In this document: positions 1,074 to 36,873 of the stretch, in pieces
Layout of the letters: every line of letters starts with the position of its first letter
Numbering within the stretch: the first letter of the stretch is position 1
Origin: Escherichia phage vB_EcoP_06
Length of the DNA stretch: 51,775 nt
Reading direction: 5' to 3' (one strand)
Sequence record: PP532814.1
Notes under the pieces: model-generated
The model's database searches: none
Seen by the model: the letters and a program-made list of their open reading frames with translations, nothing else
Told to the model about the DNA's origin: nothing
Position numbers and translations under genes: made by a program

Positions 1074-1093
1074 GTTTAACAAAAAATGCTATC
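1074..1093 (-). promoter_or_regulatory. promoter-box copy in inverted orientation upstream of the major capsid gene
   Basis: GTTTAACAAAAAATGCTATC on plus strand; no properly spaced -10 in box orientation. Confidence 0.35.
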
Positions 1094-1138
1094 ATTGGGG
1101 CGTTACATACTAACAGCCTTTATATATGGAGGAAGAAA

Positions 1139-2113
1139 ATGGAAAAAGAAAAATTTGATCAGCTAGATGCGGATATTGTTTCTAGCTATTTGGCTACTCG
1201 CGGCGTTAAGGGTGATGCTTCTGATATGGGTATCTGGACGGCGCAAGAGCTTCACAAGATCCGCTCAACTGCTTACGAGAAAGAGTATCCGGCAGGTTCG
1301 GCGCTTCGTGTGTTCCCTGTAACTAATGAGCTTTCTGATACTGATAAAACTTTTGAATATCAGATGTTTGACAAGGTTGGTTACGCAAAAATTATCGCTG
1401 ATTACACCGACGATCTGCCGACCGTTGACGCGCTGATGTCTAGCGAATTTGGTAAAGTGTTCCGCCTGGGTAATGCGTTCTTGATCTCCATTGACGAAAT
1501 CAAGGCTGGTCAGCGTACTGGTAAGAGCCTTTCCACTCGCAAGGCAAACGCAGCGCAAAACGCCCATGATCAGGAAGTTAACCGACTGGTGTTTAAAGGT
1601 TCAAAACCGCATAAGATTCTTTCGGTGTTTGAACATCCTAACCTGACAAAGATCGTGTCAACTGGCTGGTTAAGTGCTGATGAAAACACTAAGTTCCCGC
1701 AGGCAGCATCTGATGAACTGGAAAAGGCTATTGAAACCATTCAGACCATCACCAATGGTCAGCACCGAGCAACCAACATCCTGATTCCGCCGTCTATGCG
1801 CAAGGTTCTTTCCGTTCGAATGGAAAACACCACTGAAAGTTATCTGGAATACTTCCAGAAACAAAACAGCGGAATCACCATCGACTCAATCGCAGAGCTT
1901 GAGGACATTGATGGCACTGGAACGAAGGGTTGCCTGGTATATGAGAAAGACCCGATGAACATGTCGATCGAAATTCCAGAAGTATTTAATATGCTTCCGG
2001 CGCAACCAAAAGATCTGCATTTCAAAGTTCCGTGCACTTCAAAATGTACTGGCCTGACGATTTACCGTCCGTTTACGCTAGTTCTTATTACTGGCTTGAA
2101 AAAATCAGGTTAA
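1139..2113 (+). CDS. major capsid protein (putative)
   Basis: 324-aa ORF with strong RBS GGAGGAAGAAA, positioned after scaffold and decoration-like genes and followed by a strong terminator; size and position typical of a siphovirus major capsid protein. Confidence 0.55.
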   Translation: MEKEKFDQLDADIVSSYLATRGVKGDASDMGIWTAQELHKIRSTAYEKEYPAGSALRVFPVTNELSDTDKTFEYQMFDKVGYAKIIADYTDDLPTVDALMSSEFGKVFRLGNAFLISIDEIKAGQRTGKSLSTRKANAAQNAHDQEVNRLVFKGSKPHKILSVFEHPNLTKIVSTGWLSADENTKFPQAASDELEKAIETIQTITNGQHRATNILIPPSMRKVLSVRMENTTESYLEYFQKQNSGITIDSIAELEDIDGTGTKGCLVYEKDPMNMSIEIPEVFNMLPAQPKDLHFKVPCTSKCTGLTIYRPFTLVLITGLKKSG

Positions 2114-2125
2114 TCGTATAACATT

Positions 2126-2154
2126 GGGGAATCCTTAACTGGATTCCCTTTTTT
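2126..2154 (+). terminator. rho-independent terminator after major capsid gene
   Basis: Hairpin GGGGAATCC-TTAACT-GGATTCCC followed by TTTTTTAT. Confidence 0.75.
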
Positions 2155-2169
2155 ATTGGAGGTTATGAA

Positions 2170-2442
2170 ATGGCTAAAGAAAAAACTGTAACGCTAAAGG
2201 TTTCCGGCGTGTGCCTTATCATTGTTGATGGTGAGCATTATCATCCAGGCAAAGAGTTTGACGTAGAAGAATCAAAATTGAAAACAAGCGCGTTTGAATA
2301 TCTAATTGCAAAAGGCGATCTTGAGGTTAAAGACAACTCCGCATTGAACGAAGAAATCAAACAGAGCGCAGCAAGCAAACGTAAAAAAGACCCGCGAGAG
2401 GGCAAGAGCAAAGCCGAACTTGAAGACGGCGGCATCTATTAA
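2170..2442 (+). CDS. hypothetical protein (90 aa), own transcription unit between two terminators
   Basis: RBS TGGAGG; flanked by hairpin terminators at about 2126-2154 and 2448-2470. Confidence 0.4.
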
Positions 2443-2489
2443 TAAAGAGGGCGCTTATAGCGCCCTTTGTCATATCTGGAGGAAACAAA

Positions 2490-2906
2490 ATGGTTGATGA
2501 ATTTTTCACTGACGCAGAAATCACGCAGCAAATCGTGAAATTAGCTCCACCGATGAAACAGATTGATCCAGATTTAATGGTGGCATGGATTGATCTAGCA
2601 AAGGAATTTGTTTGCAAGAAGCGGTTTAAAGAATCATATCCTAAAGCGGTTGCCCTTTATACTTTGCACCTTATGACGCTTGATGGAGCTATGAAGCAAG
2701 AAGGGGAAGGCGTAGAGAGTTACTCACGGCGCGTGGCGTCATTTTCCCTGACTGGTGAATTTAGCCAGACATTTGATCGCGTGTCCGGCGATTCAAGCGG
2801 AAAAGAGATTAGACAAACTCCGTGGGGCAAAATGTATGAGACGTTAAATAGAAAAAAAGGCGGTGGATTTGGCCTTGTGACTGGATTTCGGAGGCGCTGC
2901 AAATGA
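2490..2906 (+). CDS. putative head-tail connector/adaptor protein
   Basis: Position between capsid and neck genes; RBS TGGAGGAAACAAA; translationally coupled to next gene. Confidence 0.35.
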
Positions 2907-3274
2907 ACTATAACGAGATCGCAAGAATGGCAACCGAAGGAATTAACTTCTTTAGTGATAGCAACGGTGAGTTTAAGTGCATAACGCAGCGTGGAAGCGT
3001 TGAAATCATCGGAGGCGAAGAAGTACAAAAGCCAGAGATTAGTGTAATGATTAAAGGTTTAATTCGCTCCCCAAAAGTACGCGAGGTTGACGGCGAGACA
3101 ATACGAGTAACCGATAAGCTGGGAGTTTTCAACAATAAGGTTGAAATTAAGAACGGGTATCATATTGATGTTGATGGTGAATTATATGTTGTAGTTGAAG
3201 CAAGACCAATCAGACAAACCAATGTCACAGTTGCTTATCGGCCTATTTTGAGAAGGATTTCCGTGCATGGCTAA
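2903..3274 (+). CDS. putative head-tail joining (head closure) protein
   Basis: Overlapping start/stop with flanking genes in the neck module. Confidence 0.3.
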
Positions 3275-3710
3275 AAACTACACGATAAGGGAATTTCACG
3301 GCAACATTGATGCGTGGATAAACGCCGTTGATAGTGGACTAAAAGATTGCGTGGAGTTGTTCGCCGAAAAAGTACACACAGATTTGGTTAAGCGTTCTCC
3401 GGTAGATACTGGTCGTTACCGTGGAAACTGGCAGGTAACAGCAAATAAGCCGCCATTGTATGCGCTTAACCAGTACGACAAGCACGGCGACAAAACGATC
3501 GCGGAAGGCAAGCGCGCCATATACGCGATTTTACGAGGTGGCGGAGCAGTAAGAGCCATTTACTTTTCCAACATGCTTATTTATGCCAACGCGCTTGAGT
3601 ACGGTCATTCAAAACAAGCGCCAGCGGGTGTGCTTGGGATTGTAGCGGTTAAGTTGAGATCTTATATGGCTGAAGCAATAAAAGAGTCGAGGGATAAAAA
3701 TGCACTATGA
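3267..3710 (+). CDS. neck/tail-component protein, HK97 gp10-like
   Basis: Motif SPVDTGRYRGNW resembles the conserved VDTGxLRxSW signature of the HK97 gp10 family as I recall it; position in neck module. Confidence 0.5.
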   Translation: MAKNYTIREFHGNIDAWINAVDSGLKDCVELFAEKVHTDLVKRSPVDTGRYRGNWQVTANKPPLYALNQYDKHGDKTIAEGKRAIYAILRGGGAVRAIYFSNMLIYANALEYGHSKQAPAGVLGIVAVKLRSYMAEAIKESRDKNAL

Positions 3711-4098
3711 ATTAATGCTATCGGCGCGTAAGGCGCTGGCGACTGAATACGAAAGCAGATTCATGATCGCTTATGAAAACGTAGAGTTTACGCCACCTGG
3801 TGACGGTTCGCCGTGGTTGAAGTTTGACTATGCTGAAGTTGACACAGAATACTTGTCATTGGATCGCAAATGCGTTTCTTATATCGGAATGATTCAGGTT
3901 GGCATTGTGTTTCCACCAGGTTACGGAACTGACAGGCCGCGCGTTCTCGCTAAAGAGATTGCGCAATTCTTTTACGATGGTAAAATGCTGGAGCATGGTT
4001 ATATATATGAGGGTGCAAGAGTTCACAAGCCGCTCAAGAGTGAAAGCGGTTGGATTCTCCCAATAAGGTTTTATGTTCGAATTGAAACAAAGGAGTAA
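3700..4098 (+). CDS. putative tail terminator protein
   Basis: Position immediately upstream of the major tail protein gene; overlapping start with previous gene. Confidence 0.3.
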   Translation: MHYELMLSARKALATEYESRFMIAYENVEFTPPGDGSPWLKFDYAEVDTEYLSLDRKCVSYIGMIQVGIVFPPGYGTDRPRVLAKEIAQFFYDGKMLEHGYIYEGARVHKPLKSESGWILPIRFYVRIETKE

Positions 4099-4103
4099 AA
4101 ATT

Positions 4104-4766
4104 ATGCATTTACCAAATGGATCGCAAATTTTCGTTGAGAGCAATCGAGGCAGCGAAATCCAAGCAACAGCAGTGTCAAACGCCAAAGATCCTGTTTTCA
4201 CTGTTGCATCTGGCGGCACTGCGTACAAGAAAGGTGATTATGTTATCATCACTGCGTCTTCTTGGGGTAAGCTGATTGATCGCGTTATGCGTGTAAAGAA
4301 TGACGGTGAAGAAACAAGCGTGACTCTTGAAGGCGTAGATACTACTGATCAGAACGTTTTCCCGTCTGGCGGTACTGCATCTTTTGCCAAAATTGATGCA
4401 TGGACTGAGATCCCTTGCGTTCAGGATTTGTCGCAGGACGGAGGCGAACAGCAATACTACACTTATCAGTGTTTGGCAGACGATCAGGAACAGCAGTTAC
4501 CTACCTATAAGAGCGCCGTTTCTCTTACCTACACTTTTGCGCACGAATACGATAACGCGATCTATCCGTTACTTCGTGCAGCAGATGAATCCGGCGCTGT
4601 AACGGCGCTTCGTATGTATGTACCAAAAGCAAAAGAGATGCGTTGCTGGGCTGGTGTACTTTCATTTAACGAGATCCCACAAACGACCGTTAACGAAATG
4701 GAAACCGTTTCCCTGTCTGTATCCCTGAAAGGTCGATTCACCTTCCTACCTTCTCAAGTAGCATAA
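4104..4766 (+). CDS. major tail (tube) protein (putative)
   Basis: 220-aa ORF with RBS AAGGAG, followed by strong terminator (about 4773-4795) and then the chaperone pair and tape measure gene. Confidence 0.5.
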   Translation: MHLPNGSQIFVESNRGSEIQATAVSNAKDPVFTVASGGTAYKKGDYVIITASSWGKLIDRVMRVKNDGEETSVTLEGVDTTDQNVFPSGGTASFAKIDAWTEIPCVQDLSQDGGEQQYYTYQCLADDQEQQLPTYKSAVSLTYTFAHEYDNAIYPLLRAADESGAVTALRMYVPKAKEMRCWAGVLSFNEIPQTTVNEMETVSLSVSLKGRFTFLPSQVA

Positions 4767-4772
4767 TCACAA

Positions 4773-4795
4773 GGGGCGTTGCGCCCCTTTTTTTG
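4773..4795 (+). terminator. rho-independent terminator after major tail gene
   Basis: Hairpin GGGGCG-TTG-CGCCCC followed by TTTTTTTTG. Confidence 0.75.
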
Positions 4796-4832
4796 TTACT
4801 GTACAATCAAGCTACACGATTCATAATCAATT

Positions 4833-4853
4833 CTTTTAACAAAAAGTGCTATC
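4833..4853 (-). promoter_or_regulatory. promoter-box copy in inverted orientation upstream of the tail assembly chaperone gene
   Basis: CTTTTAACAAAAAGTGCTATC on plus strand; no properly spaced -10 in box orientation. Confidence 0.35.
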
Positions 4854-4865
4854 AAGGGGAAAGAA

Positions 4866-5183
4866 ATGTCAAAAATGAAATTGACGATTGGGCCGCTTCC
4901 TGACTTTAAATTACCAGTGAAATTTGCAATGCCTAACGGAGAAGATCAAACAATTATCTTCACAGTTCGCCACCGCAAAACAAGTGAGATTCACGAGCGC
5001 TACACGTCAGATACTCCAATGAGCGATGTTGAAATGATCACCTTCCTTGCTTCCGGTTGGAATCTTGATGATGAATTTAACGAAGAAAATATTAAACAGC
5101 TTCTTGATTACTACCCAGCGACAGCAATCGGATTAACTAGCGCATACATGAAAGCGCTTGCGGGGCAGCGAGTAAAAAACTAA
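4866..5183 (+). CDS. tail assembly chaperone (G-like)
   Basis: First of two small ORFs directly upstream of the tape measure gene; RBS AAGGGGAAAGAA. Confidence 0.45.
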   Translation: MSKMKLTIGPLPDFKLPVKFAMPNGEDQTIIFTVRHRKTSEIHERYTSDTPMSDVEMITFLASGWNLDDEFNEENIKQLLDYYPATAIGLTSAYMKALAGQRVKN

Positions 5184-8564: not shown

Positions 8565-8586
8565 GCCGCCTTTGTGCGGCTTTTTT
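8565..8586 (+). terminator. rho-independent terminator
   Basis: Hairpin GCCGC-CTTTGT-GCGGC followed by TTTTTTAT. Confidence 0.6.
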
Positions 8587-8620
8587 ATTGATGATACAAT
8601 GCACGAAAGGAGGTGCAATT

Positions 8621-22219: not shown

Positions 22220-23152
22220 TTAGAGAATTGATTCAGGTTTGAAAACCTTCCTCTCTATCCCTTGCTTGTAATTATCATTAATCGGCATCATAATTTCAAG
22301 CCCTCTTTCCTCGGCAGCAATGATCGCGTCACGATCTGTGCTCTTACAGACAACTCGCATTCTTCTGTTGCCTTTGTACCTGTAAGCTACAATCTCAATG
22401 TTAGTTGCATCAAAGCAGGCCCAAACCTCCTGACCAGTTGCAAGGTGAATATGTTGCGCATCAATCCAGTCAACGCAAAGATAGATCGTCTTATCTGTGC
22501 TACCTGTTTTAACAACAGATCCGCGCGTGTAGTCGCGAGCTAAAAACCAATCCTTTCCATCCTCATCAATGAAAAGCACGTTACACATTTCATCATCAAT
22601 TTCATCTGAATGTACCAGGTAACATGGCAACGCGTGAATGTATCGACCATCTTTAACGCCGCATTCATAATAACCATCTTCAGGAGGGTATATTCCTTCA
22701 TATGTGCTTAACGGCGTGCGATCAAATTTTAGTGTTTTTGACATAACGCGCTCGCAGCATTCATGGCTTGCCTGCTTCCCAAACGAATAACCAGAATCAC
22801 GAGATACTCGCTTATTTGCCTTGATCCTATAGTCCTGCGGAACTTTTCCAAGAAATCGGCCCAAAATATTTATCACTTCGCTGTAAGGTTCTCCGGTTAG
22901 CTTCATGATCCAACCAATTCCGGTATCATTACCGCACACGTTGCAGATCGCACCGCCATCGCCTTTTTTATCGCCAAGTTTATCCGTCCATCTGAAGCGA
23001 TCCTTTCCGCCGCAGTGGGGGCAAGATTGATGCTTGCCGTTAAAAACTTCATTTGGAAGACCGCAAATACTTTGTAGCGCCTCACGCCACAATCCTTGCA
23101 TATATGGGAGAACATCTTCTTTTTGATAAACCATAAAGTTTTCGTTATTCAT
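22220..23152 (-). CDS. DNA primase (zinc-binding, putative TOPRIM)
   Basis: Zn-ribbon motif CPHCGGKDRF ... CNVCG near N-terminus; RBS GAGGTG before ATG at 23152; terminator after stop. Confidence 0.55.
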   Translation of the reverse strand: MNNENFMVYQKEDVLPYMQGLWREALQSICGLPNEVFNGKHQSCPHCGGKDRFRWTDKLGDKKGDGGAICNVCGNDTGIGWIMKLTGEPYSEVINILGRFLGKVPQDYRIKANKRVSRDSGYSFGKQASHECCERVMSKTLKFDRTPLSTYEGIYPPEDGYYECGVKDGRYIHALPCYLVHSDEIDDEMCNVLFIDEDGKDWFLARDYTRGSVVKTGSTDKTIYLCVDWIDAQHIHLATGQEVWACFDATNIEIVAYRYKGNRRMRVVCKSTDRDAIIAAEERGLEIMMPINDNYKQGIERKVFKPESIL

Positions 23153-23207
23153 ATACACCTCAAACAAAAAAGCCTGACAGATGATAACATCATGCCAGGC
23201 ATTGTTT

Positions 23208-23681
23208 TTAGCAATTAGTGCTTTCAGGTTTATACAGGAATCCGCCAGGTTCATAATCTGACATTCTTACCACTCGCAACATTTCACGCTTATCACATCT
23301 CTTTGTGAGCGGTTTTCCATTGGAATCAAATCGCAGATCTGGACGGCAGAATGAAGCGCGATAGCCTTGACAGCCATACTTTTTGTAATCGTTATGCACC
23401 TTTTGAGCGCCAGCGGCTGAAATCATACCGCGAACGCGCCACTGATTTACAGTTTGCTGGCTAACGTTAAGACGCTTTGCCATTGCTGACACGCTGCCGT
23501 AATACTCAATAAGAATGTCAAGCCGTGCTTTTAGTCCGGCGCGCACTTCATCTTTTAAAACATAGTATCCTGTAGGGCGCTTGCGCTTTTTCTTATCTTT
23601 ACCCCGTCGAGTTCCGTTATTGCCATTGATTGTGCGTTTGTCAATCTTACCAGTTGATACTGCGATTCGCTGTTCTTTCAT
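23208..23681 (-). CDS. HTH DNA-binding protein (Cro/YdaS-like), putative transcriptional regulator
   Basis: Helix-turn-helix GSVSAMAKRLNVSQQTVNQW; highly basic N-terminal region; divergent from helicase promoter. Confidence 0.5.
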   Translation of the reverse strand: MKEQRIAVSTGKIDKRTINGNNGTRRGKDKKKRKRPTGYYVLKDEVRAGLKARLDILIEYYGSVSAMAKRLNVSQQTVNQWRVRGMISAAGAQKVHNDYKKYGCQGYRASFCRPDLRFDSNGKPLTKRCDKREMLRVVRMSDYEPGGFLYKPESTNC

Positions 23682-23693
23682 TATTCATTCTCC

Positions 23694-23737
23694 AATAGCA
23701 TTTTTTGTTAAACGATGATTTAATGATTGTGTATTAT
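23694..23737 (+). promoter_or_regulatory. phage promoter box (AATAGCATTTTTTGTTAAAC) + 18 bp + -10 TATTAT, upstream of helicase
   Basis: Member of the conserved 21-bp box family at fixed spacing from a -10-like hexamer. Confidence 0.55.
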
Positions 23738-23770
23738 ACACGCCAAATGGCATTACTCAAAGGTTTTAGA

Positions 23771-25816: not shown

Positions 25817-26222
25817 TAAAGGCGATTATCTGGAGTTTTACGAAAGAGATCCGACGGATACGCTAAAAGAGGAATCACACCAGATTGGGGCGTTTCAATG
25901 GTTAACTTATGCTCATCCTGAATTGCTGGCATGGCATACGAAAAACGAGGGTGACAAGGGGATCGCCACGGCAATGATGGATCAGCAAGCCGGACTCGTT
26001 AAGGGCGTAAGTGATTTCATCATCCTGATTGGATTAAAAGGCCGTTACCCGTTCGCGGCAATAGAGATGAAGCGCGTAAATAAGTCAGGAAAGGGGAAGG
26101 CTTCACCAGTAAGCAAGGATCAAAAAGCCTTCTTGCGCCGTGTGCGTGAGCTTGGCGGATTCGCTGCCGTAACATACGGATATAAGCAATTCATGATCGC
26201 GGTAGAATACATGATGAAATAG
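25803..26222 (+). CDS. VRR-NUC domain nuclease
   Basis: Motif GLVKGVSDFIIL ... AIEMK matching VRR-NUC D ... E-x-K arrangement; start overlaps helicase stop. Confidence 0.55.
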   Translation: MAMTDKGDYLEFYERDPTDTLKEESHQIGAFQWLTYAHPELLAWHTKNEGDKGIATAMMDQQAGLVKGVSDFIILIGLKGRYPFAAIEMKRVNKSGKGKASPVSKDQKAFLRRVRELGGFAAVTYGYKQFMIAVEYMMK

Positions 26223-26262
26223 CACTTTTTGTTAAAACAGGCGCGAAGGATTGCGCCATAAT
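26218..26262 (+). promoter_or_regulatory. phage promoter box + 18 bp + -10 CATAAT, upstream of dam
   Basis: AATAGCACTTTTTGTTAAAAC, GC-rich palindromic spacer, CATAAT. Confidence 0.55.
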
Positions 26263-27258: not shown

Positions 27259-27303
27259 AATAGCACTTTTTGTTAAAACGCCCGACCTTGTGTCGGGCAT
27301 AAT
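27259..27303 (+). promoter_or_regulatory. phage promoter box + 18 bp + -10 CATAAT
   Basis: AATAGCACTTTTTGTTAAAAC, spacer GCCCGACCTTGTGTCGGG (hairpin-forming), CATAAT. Confidence 0.55.
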
Positions 27304-30948: not shown

Positions 30949-30993
30949 AATATACCCGATACGAGATCGGTAGTTTTAACAAAAAGTGCTATT
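30949..30993 (-). promoter_or_regulatory. phage promoter box + 18 bp + -10 TATATT (minus strand)
   Basis: Same arrangement. Confidence 0.5.
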
Positions 30994-33116: not shown

Positions 33117-33161
33117 ATAATACCGCACCAATGCTACCCGCATTTAACAAAAAATACTATT
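33117..33161 (-). promoter_or_regulatory. phage promoter box variant (AATAGTATTTTTTGTTAAATG) + 18 bp + -10 TATTAT (minus strand), upstream of DUF3987-like gene
   Basis: Same arrangement. Confidence 0.45.
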
Positions 33162-33792: not shown

Positions 33793-33837
33793 ATTATGCC
33801 AGGCTTTTACACCTGGCTTTTAACAAAAAGTGCTATT
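33793..33837 (-). promoter_or_regulatory. phage promoter box + 18 bp + -10 CATAAT (minus strand)
   Basis: Spacer CCAGGTGTAAAAGCCTGG is palindromic. Confidence 0.5.
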
Positions 33838-35193: not shown

Positions 35194-35238
35194 AATATAC
35201 CAATCAGAGGCGCATCGGTTTTAACAAAAAGTGCTATT
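35194..35238 (-). promoter_or_regulatory. phage promoter box + 18 bp + -10 TATATT (minus strand)
   Basis: Same arrangement. Confidence 0.5.
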
Positions 35239-35690: not shown

Positions 35691-35735
35691 AATATATCGG
35701 ATTGCGAGGATTGAGTTTTAACAAAAAGTGCTATT
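35691..35735 (-). promoter_or_regulatory. phage promoter box + 18 bp + -10 TATATT (minus strand)
   Basis: Same arrangement. Confidence 0.5.
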
Positions 35736-36828: not shown

Positions 36829-36873
36829 AATGTACCCGATCAGGACAATTCAGTTTTAACAAAAAGTGCTATT
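36829..36873 (-). promoter_or_regulatory. phage promoter box + 18 bp + -10 TACATT (minus strand), first leftward early promoter
   Basis: Reverse complement of box on plus strand (GTTTTAACAAAAAGTGCTATT). Confidence 0.5.

Follow-up and report, generated by a model that had tools for sequence, protein, structure and literature searches.

Reversed marbox-like sites at late promoters of a T1-like phage: conserved and regulatory in appearance

What does a promoter element do when it is turned against the gene that it precedes? The question is raised by Escherichia phage vB_EcoP_06 (sequence record PP532814.1; the whole stretch of 51,775 nucleotides is called the window below), in which a short box recurs ahead of many genes and in which two copies, one upstream of the major capsid gene and one upstream of the tail assembly chaperone gene, stand in the opposite orientation to the plus-strand genes that flank them. 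The window is the complete genome of a T1-like phage of the genus Hanrivervirus (Drexlerviridae, Tempevirinae; pSf-1-like), and its first 6 kb match the Hanrivervirus phages phiE31-2, pSf-1, Henu8 and BASEL JakobBernoulli at 96-98% over the full length. An earlier note on this DNA had described the two copies and offered two explanations, namely binding sites for the regulator of the box that act as a late-gene switch or roadblock, or weak antisense promoters. Both copies are real, being 20-mers on the minus strand at 1073-1092 and 4833-4852 that score 26.7 and 31.3 bits against a noise level of ~9 bits, and both are indeed oriented against the flanking genes, whereas the other 19 strong copies face the genes downstream of them. 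Judged from sequence, the reversed copies are conserved and regulatory in appearance. What the note had missed is that they overlap plus-strand promoters, that the portal promoter has a third site, and that sequence and spacing of the box are those of a marbox.

A pattern scan of the window with TTTAACAAAAARTGCTATCA found it without mismatches at 1075-1094 and 4835-4854, together with 14 more copies at three mismatches or fewer, for a total of 16 against 0.02 expected. Once extended and oriented, all copies formed one family, AAATAGCACTTTTTGTTAAAAC, whose box is 20 bp long (ATAGCACnnnTTGyTAAAAC), with TTT, GAA, TAA or AAA as its variable triplet and a partial dyad (TAGCA-N5-TG(C/T)TA) within it. 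A position weight matrix (PWM) scan returned 22 sites of 14-33 bits, of which 19 are canonical in that they point toward their downstream genes; among the strong copies, only those at the capsid and chaperone genes are oriented against the adjoining genes. In the canonical copies a -10 hexamer (CATAAT, TATAAT, TATATT and similar) follows the box after 17 nt (four sites) or 18 nt (15 sites). The box thereby spans -51 to -32 with its centre near -41.5, and it replaces the -35 element, the consensus of which is matched at a mean of only 2.05 positions out of six.

On sequence and geometry, the box looks exactly like an asymmetric protein site of the marbox type, the site of the host stress regulators MarA, SoxS and Rob, which are monomeric activators with two HTH (helix-turn-helix) motifs, and of RamA in Klebsiella. 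The consensus derived from MarA ChIP-seq, GCAHWWWWTGYYAAA (quoted in PMC6900184), is matched without error 16 times in the window where 0.13 such matches would be expected, and both reversed copies agree with it at 15 of 15 positions. The positions that are invariant in the phage (GCA, TG, YY and AAA) are the informative ones of GCAHWWWWTGYYAAA, the degenerate stretch of which takes in the variable triplet. The longer, 20-mer form of the marbox, which we take to be AYnGCACnnWnnRYYAAAYn, is matched at 19 of 20 positions. At class II promoters a forward site overlaps the -35 with its centre at about -41 and is combined with a canonical -10 (PMC10268841; PMC12052159), and there is no recognisable -35 hexamer, the mean being 1.9 matches (PMC10268841). 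All of this holds for the 19 canonical copies; the chaperone copy shows the same geometry leftward, 18 nt from a weak -10 (TAGCTT) in which the three key bases are kept, and the capsid copy shows it in neither direction. The micF promoter of E. coli K-12, read directly, consists of ACAGCACTGAATGTCAAAAC, 18 nt and TAGAAT, with the centre of the site at -41.5 from the annotated 5' end (for the RamA/micF structure see PMC8811837). The phage box is identical to the micF site at 15 of 20 positions, with the same AAAAC end and the same 18-nt gap. The marbox of the mar promoter was also checked, and there the reverse complement of GATTTAGCAAAACGTGGCAT is ATGCCACGTTTTGCTAAATC. As expected for a non-palindromic, oriented site, the 19 canonical copies all lie forward, A17-A18 are kept and the opposite flank is free.

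The element itself was already known. The 2024 re-annotation of phage TLS described 21 copies of a 21-nt direct repeat, aaATAGCACnnnTTGnTAAAA, with similar repeats in T1, Rtp and Rogue1, and left its function open between a stoperator, an enhancer site and an UP element (PMC11447400). Our box agrees with that consensus and is the same element. The TLS repeats are characterized as oriented with transcription and ~76 nt 5' of a start codon, in contrast to the two reversed copies, which end 46 nt (capsid) and 13 nt (chaperone) before the ATG. Although the TLS paper says that all repeats follow transcription, its own DR7, on the negative strand (15024-15044) within a plus-strand late operon, is an exception (PMC11447400); DR7 is the homologue of our capsid copy. 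The TLS paper is silent on the reversal of DR7, on the marbox match and on the capsid promoter that is overlapped, and TLS has no chaperone copy. Our literature search, which covered T1-like transcriptomes or maps of transcription start sites, any link between marboxes and phages, and the literal motif, returned the TLS paper only, and neither the marbox identity nor the late copies embedded in promoters were found in the literature searched.

The capsid copy (ATAGCATTTTTTGTTAAACG) lies within a plus-strand promoter of the major capsid gene (1139-2113, plus strand; assigned as an open reading frame (ORF) and from the annotation of relatives), which we call P(MCP). In the window, P(MCP) reads TTGCAC (-35, 1068-1073), a 16-nt spacer (1074-1089) that is the reversed box, and an extended -10, TGcTATCAT (1087-1095). 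The 20-mer thus covers -29 to -10, reaches three bases into the -10 hexamer and contributes the TG of its extended form. An A-tract just 5' of the -35 (1057-1062) is a possible proximal UP-like element. To place the copy among relatives we used an alignment anchored on the box, comprising 77 loci and 44 distinct sequences with a capsid identity of 53-99%, throughout which its place and orientation are the same. The conserved plus-strand order is an A-tract (with an invariant AAAA block), an invariant TTG, exactly 16 nt of reversed box ending in TG, and TATnnT, which is kept in 44 of the 44 distinct relatives, as is the spacer without insertion or deletion. The -35 hexamer is TTGCAC in 20 of them, TTGACG in 12, TTGAAC in five, TTGACC in five and something else in two, and the -10 is TATCAT, TATTCT or TATATT. 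Both elements persist where the box has decayed: Webervirus-like loci and KP36 carry TTGACG-16-TATCCT with ATATCACGAATCGTTAAG at the homologous place, and the depositors of KP36 annotated this stretch as a promoter. In most Webervirus-like genomes (KP36 15358-15385) the box in the capsid promoter has lost three key bases, with changes from GCAC to TCAC, from TTG to TCG and from AAA to AAG; in the rest of the KP36 genome, at least 15 canonical boxes are intact.

Although bases in a spacer are normally free to change, GTTAAA and GCA in that of P(MCP) are kept from genus to genus, and the copy is therefore likely to be held by a binder; the conservation is one-sided, toward A17-A18, and the one-sided AAA points in turn to an asymmetric binder. 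By these signs the capsid copy reads as a protein site within P(MCP), in the layout known from pbpG, in which an independent sigma-70 promoter has a marbox between its -35 and -10, and not as an antisense promoter. The minus-strand hexamer at the canonical distance is TATGCG in the window and TAGGGC, TAGCAC or TAACCC in relatives, with T at -7 not kept. A minus-strand promoter at this copy was rejected, given the lack of conservation both in this hexamer and in a TATGGT-like one at a distance of 15 nt. The absence of a correctly spaced -10, claimed earlier for both copies, is thus correct here. The claim that each copy sits between a terminator and a late gene is not, since no terminator lies upstream of the capsid copy and a weak hairpin with a T-run follows it instead, between P(MCP) and the capsid Shine-Dalgarno sequence (1097-1120, plus strand; -6.8 kcal/mol, z -0.9). 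Stems at this place are stronger in relatives, and the TLS annotation lists T35 there.

At the chaperone copy (ATAGCACTTTTTGTTAAAAG) both claims turn out the other way. It stands between the predicted intrinsic terminator that follows the major tail protein gene (4771-4796, plus strand; 4771-4789 in the terminator call) and the tail assembly chaperone gene (4866-5183, plus strand; Phage_TAC_4, E 1.8e-31), as the earlier note had it, and a correctly spaced hexamer does exist, TAGCTT at 4809-4814 on the minus strand, 18 nt from the box. As far as spacing and conservation can tell, the two form a complete leftward class-II-type promoter that would fire from ~4802. The copy occurs in ~20 distinct lineages and is absent at 18 loci, TLS among them. 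In the lineages that bear it, TAnnnT always stands 18 nt from the 20-mer without any spacer indel, with T-12, A-11 and T-7 kept (TAGATT, TAGCAT, TAGAGT, TAGGAT, TAGGCT, TATATT, TACAGT, TACGAT, TATCAT, TATCTT), and it is lacking at the homologous place in lineages without the box; the box and its -10 therefore travel together.

The same DNA carries a rightward promoter, P(TAC) (4779-4807), that is conserved family-wide and consists of TTGCGC (4779-4784, in the terminator loop), 17 nt and TACAAT (4802-4807). Lineages without the box keep it, as TTGCGT-17-TAATAT or TTGTGC-17-CATAAT. Its -10 (cTGTAnAAT) stands at a constant 27 nt from the box (36 nt from the 'c'), with intervening sequence that is almost wholly different between lineages. 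The leftward -10 abuts the rightward one, and with a predicted rightward start at ~4814 the box falls in the predicted transcribed leader, at +21 to +40 of P(TAC). Three other roles were rejected. A plus-strand promoter in which the chaperone copy would supply spacer and -10, on the capsid pattern, fails because relatives have no TTG at the -35 place, and in relatives the would-be -10 does not end in T at -7 (TATCAA, TATAAG, TATCGG, TATTTA and others). An RNA element is not indicated, in that there is no Rfam match and the leaders fold no better than shuffled sequences. A replication origin marked by an orphan leftward promoter is not indicated either, as the GC skew tracks gene orientation and shows nothing special near 4.8 kb. 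Combined terminator-promoter units are repeated in the late operon (4779-4807, 8572-8600 and 10708-10736), each with a -35-like TTGCGC or TTGTGC in the terminator loop and 3' arm, 17 nt, and then TACAAT or TATAAT.

A third late site is a decayed forward box, ATAGCACGAATCGACAAACC (48466-48485, plus strand; 14.1 bits), upstream of the portal gene. It lies between the large terminase and portal genes, 4 nt before a TATAAT (48490-48495) that is followed by a hairpin (48500-48516), a T-run and the portal Shine-Dalgarno sequence, and many relatives have a perfect ATAGCACGAATTGCTAAA at the same place and spacing (for example L002, 1681-1700). All three late promoters (portal, capsid and chaperone) thus carry a site that overlaps core elements and is not at -41.5. 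A box promoter paired with an opposite sigma-70 promoter, as at the chaperone locus, is also present between the helicase and regulator genes (23695-23760). The helicase box (23695-23714, plus strand), a 20-mer identical to the capsid copy and assigned from geometry and as the equivalent of TLS P57/DR11, has a class-II-type -10, TATTAT (23732-23737), that overlaps with an offset of 1 the TATAAT (23733-23738) of the minus-strand promoter of the regulator/primase operon (TTGAGT at 23755-23760, 16 nt, TATAAT). This bidirectional arrangement is conserved in KP36. The helicase box lies also, reversed, in the 5' untranslated region of the divergent operon, next to the Shine-Dalgarno sequence. The regulator (23208-23681, minus strand) is a Cro-like HTH protein of 157 aa (P22_Cro/YdaS HTH; Cro proteins in PDB at E 2e-5; phrog_2856) and is 72% identical to KP36 gp55.

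From the sites, their geometry, their conservation and the promoters that they overlap, we infer a binder, a sign of its effect and a timing. One box-binding factor would drive the 19 early and middle promoters and restrain the three late ones. At the former, the forward site at -41.5 would take the place of the -35, with class II activation as at micF. At P(MCP), the reversed site in the spacer and -10 has the position of an operator, and the bound factor would occupy the core promoter, as it would at the portal promoter from the forward copy 4 nt from the -10. At P(TAC), polymerase recruited leftward over the same DNA would compete with rightward initiation, and by firing into the terminator it would make a short antisense RNA. 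Release of the late genes could follow from titration by replicating genomes, with 22 sites each, or from loss of the factor. The late-gene switch is accordingly the one of the two earlier proposals that we favour in general, given the operator position of the capsid copy in a conserved sigma-70 promoter, though it is deduced, and the antisense promoter is retained for the chaperone copy.

As the binder we propose host MarA, SoxS or Rob, with early promoters on and late promoters restrained, and we give this reading a probability of about one half. A homologue encoded by the phage was sought and rejected: the best tblastn hit of MarA and SoxS had an E value of 0.19 (the MarA query being validated by a 95% match to Salmonella DNA), neither HTH_18 nor HTH_AraC was matched when 36 ORFs were scanned against Pfam, and no Drexlerviridae were among the top phage matches listed for MarA. 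That no AraC-family protein was found in the phage points to host factors. At pbpG, a marbox overlapping the spacer leads to direct repression by MarA, SoxS and Rob (PMC12052159). P(MCP) resembles pbpG as a sigma-70 promoter with a recognisable -35 and -10 and a marbox between them, and differs in that the site takes in three bases at the start of the -10 and provides the TG that extends it, and in that its effect is predicted. The rob promoter is reportedly a second case of a marbox in a spacer, credited to Schneiders and Levy in 2006.

Several points weigh against this proposal. In a Keio screen of LL5, a T1-like phage, rob, marA and soxS were not among the genes recovered (PMC7229145), and in standard culture Rob is for the most part aggregated and inactive, with no induction of MarA and SoxS (PMC10268841). 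Since T1-like phages nevertheless grow well in the laboratory, strict dependence on one host factor is unlikely. Neither reversed copy is indispensable, given that TLS and other genera lack the chaperone copy and that in most Webervirus-like loci the capsid copy has decayed. A reverse marbox in the core promoter of flgBP2 activates (PMC12781870), so that the sign at P(MCP) could be the opposite of the one proposed. The phage has a conserved Cro-like regulator of its own, with one of the few consensus sigma-70 promoters and a box in its leader, and the searched literature yielded no binding or expression data for any T1-like phage.

The regulator provides the alternative that survives best, which we regard as possible but rather improbable. 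It holds that the 157-aa Cro-like protein, made at once from its consensus sigma-70 promoter, binds the box, activates the 19 promoters at -41.5 and acts on the late promoters by way of the reversed copies, the likeness to the marbox being convergence or mimicry. The protein has a Cro-type HTH and is the product of a core gene that, at 72% identity between Hanrivervirus and Webervirus, is more conserved than the capsid protein. Its own promoter (TTGAGT-16-TATAAT) with the reversed box in the leader is a typical autoregulatory layout, its TLS equivalent, P57, is listed among only three sigma-70-like promoters (PMC11447400), the box has its partial dyad, and the failure to recover single knockouts of rob, marA and soxS for LL5 fits as well. 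The site, however, is asymmetric. G4 is invariant, but its dyad partner is C in only a minority of copies, most of them having T. Conservation of C7, T11 and A17-A19 has no symmetric counterpart either, and this is true of the capsid copy too, where contacts with polymerase cannot explain it. The marbox consensus already accounts for every conserved position, with the variable triplet in its degenerate part. An activator that persisted late would, moreover, keep the capsid promoter repressed when it is most needed. The asymmetry, as read from the copies, is more in keeping with a monomer of the MarA type than with a symmetric Cro dimer.

That the reversed copies are chiefly antisense promoters, with a short leftward RNA that is functional, for example in control of the upstream cement and major-tail mRNAs, appears unlikely. 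The chaperone copy has the full class-II-type geometry and the conserved TAnnnT, and after ~30-40 nt a transcript from ~4802 would meet the stable reverse-strand hairpin of the terminator (-15.4 kcal/mol, z -3.3) and then UUGUGAUU. This tail, however, is only weakly U-rich and not called as a terminator, there is no Rfam family, no conserved ORF on the minus strand stood out in the ORF list, and the capsid copy lacks a usable minus-strand -10.

We consider it quite improbable that the reversed box in P(MCP) activates, the bound factor distorting base pairing and helping to open the -10 as MarA does at flgBP2, so that early and capsid transcription would both be raised by one factor. There, a reverse marbox inside the core promoter beside the -10 activates by distorting -11, ~5 bp from the site (PMC12781870), and in P(MCP) A-11 is 2 bp from the end of the site's 15-nt core. 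But flgBP2 is a sigma-28-dependent promoter with an opening defect, whereas P(MCP) is a strong-looking sigma-70 promoter that, with its TTG, extended TG and TATCAT, should need no help in opening. At pbpG, the precedent for a spacer marbox in a sigma-70 promoter, the outcome is repression, and the 20-mer covers T-12, A-11 and T-10, which favours a steric clash. Class I activation by the reversed copies was rejected, as centres near -62 or -72 would put the starts inside coding sequence (~1145-1155 and ~4906-4916). Finally, that the box is an RNA-polymerase element only (UP-like plus an odd -35), the reversed copies being relics or chance re-use, is very hard to sustain: it is A/T-rich and lies at -51 to -32, and the UP-element idea was raised by the TLS authors (PMC11447400), but an UP element is an A/T-rich block at -40 to -60 that precedes a functional -35, whereas the box replaces the -35, has an invariant GCAC and fits the consensus of a specific protein site, the capsid copy is kept base-for-base in the spacer across genera with diverged flanks, and the chaperone copy and a spaced -10 are always present together.

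With respect to other known systems, the canonical copies share with the micF type of class II promoter a forward asymmetric 20-bp site, 18 bp to the -10, the lack of a -35 and a centre at -41.5. They differ in that 19 near-identical sites are spread over 51.6 kb of a virulent phage, that binding is predicted and that two further copies are reversed. One protein that activates or represses according to the position of its site, and so sets an early/late switch, is familiar from phi29 p4 and lambda CI; those proteins are phage-encoded and use symmetric or bent-DNA sites, whereas here the site is that of a family of monomeric host activators. The stoperators of mycobacteriophage L5, suggested by the TLS authors, resemble the box in being many, asymmetric and oriented, and the chaperone copy does lie in a transcribed leader. 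In contrast to stoperators, which are sited within transcribed regions and block elongation in one orientation, each of the 19 canonical copies precedes the predicted start, only the chaperone copy and the one in the regulator leader are placed in leaders, and the phage is virulent, with no L5-type repressor identified.

The canonical copies, assigned from class-II geometry and the PWM, are located on the minus strand at 15444-15463, 23205-23224 (primase promoter), 30973-30992, 33141-33160 (with the variant ATAGTAT), 33817-33836, 35218-35237, 35715-35734 and 36853-36872, and on the plus strand, besides the helicase box, at 16954-16973 (weaker, 18.0 bits), 26219-26238, 27260-27279, 37951-37970, 38414-38433, 38951-38970, 40336-40355 and 42856-42875 (both of the GAA type), 41554-41573 and 44199-44218. 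Most of their promoters share a leader, CATCGAAACGA...GAGGA, ~5-20 nt 3' of the -10 (for example at 37999-38015), which starts at about the predicted transcription start and may be a common signal in the 5' untranslated region for stability or translation. At the primase box promoter (23150-23224, minus strand), the equivalent of TLS T57/DR10, the -10 TATCAT lies within a hairpin followed by a T-run, and such overlap of promoter and terminator recurs after the capsid and portal promoters. On the plus strand, the late structural operon extends from ~46.2 kb across the junction of the window to 14.2 kb. Bases 1-127 are repeated exactly at 51649-51775, most likely because the assembler left overlapping ends on a circularly closed or permuted genome, and not as a biological terminal repeat; the window therefore represents a single genome, circularly closed, of 51,648 bp.

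T1-like phages often contaminate laboratories and are candidates for therapy, and their transcriptional control is essentially uncharacterised. Reading the box as a marbox offers a testable mechanism for their early transcription, with Rob, MarA, SoxS or the phage Cro-like protein as candidates, and the reversed and displaced copies within the portal, capsid and chaperone promoters offer a concrete way into the question of how late genes come to be delayed. If host factors bind, phage development would be wired to the regulon for efflux, porins and TolC, the receptor of TLS-type relatives, which would be of relevance to phage-antibiotic interactions. More tentatively, transcription throughout the Drexlerviridae might run on host MarA, SoxS and Rob, with ~20 near-perfect class II marboxes for the early and middle genes, marboxes in the portal, capsid and tail-chaperone promoters as a brake on these, replication titrating the factor as a copy-number timer and no switch encoded by the phage. 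Were this doubtful but attractive extension true, phage growth would be tied to host stress and gut signals such as bile, and the host mar regulon might be drained during infection.

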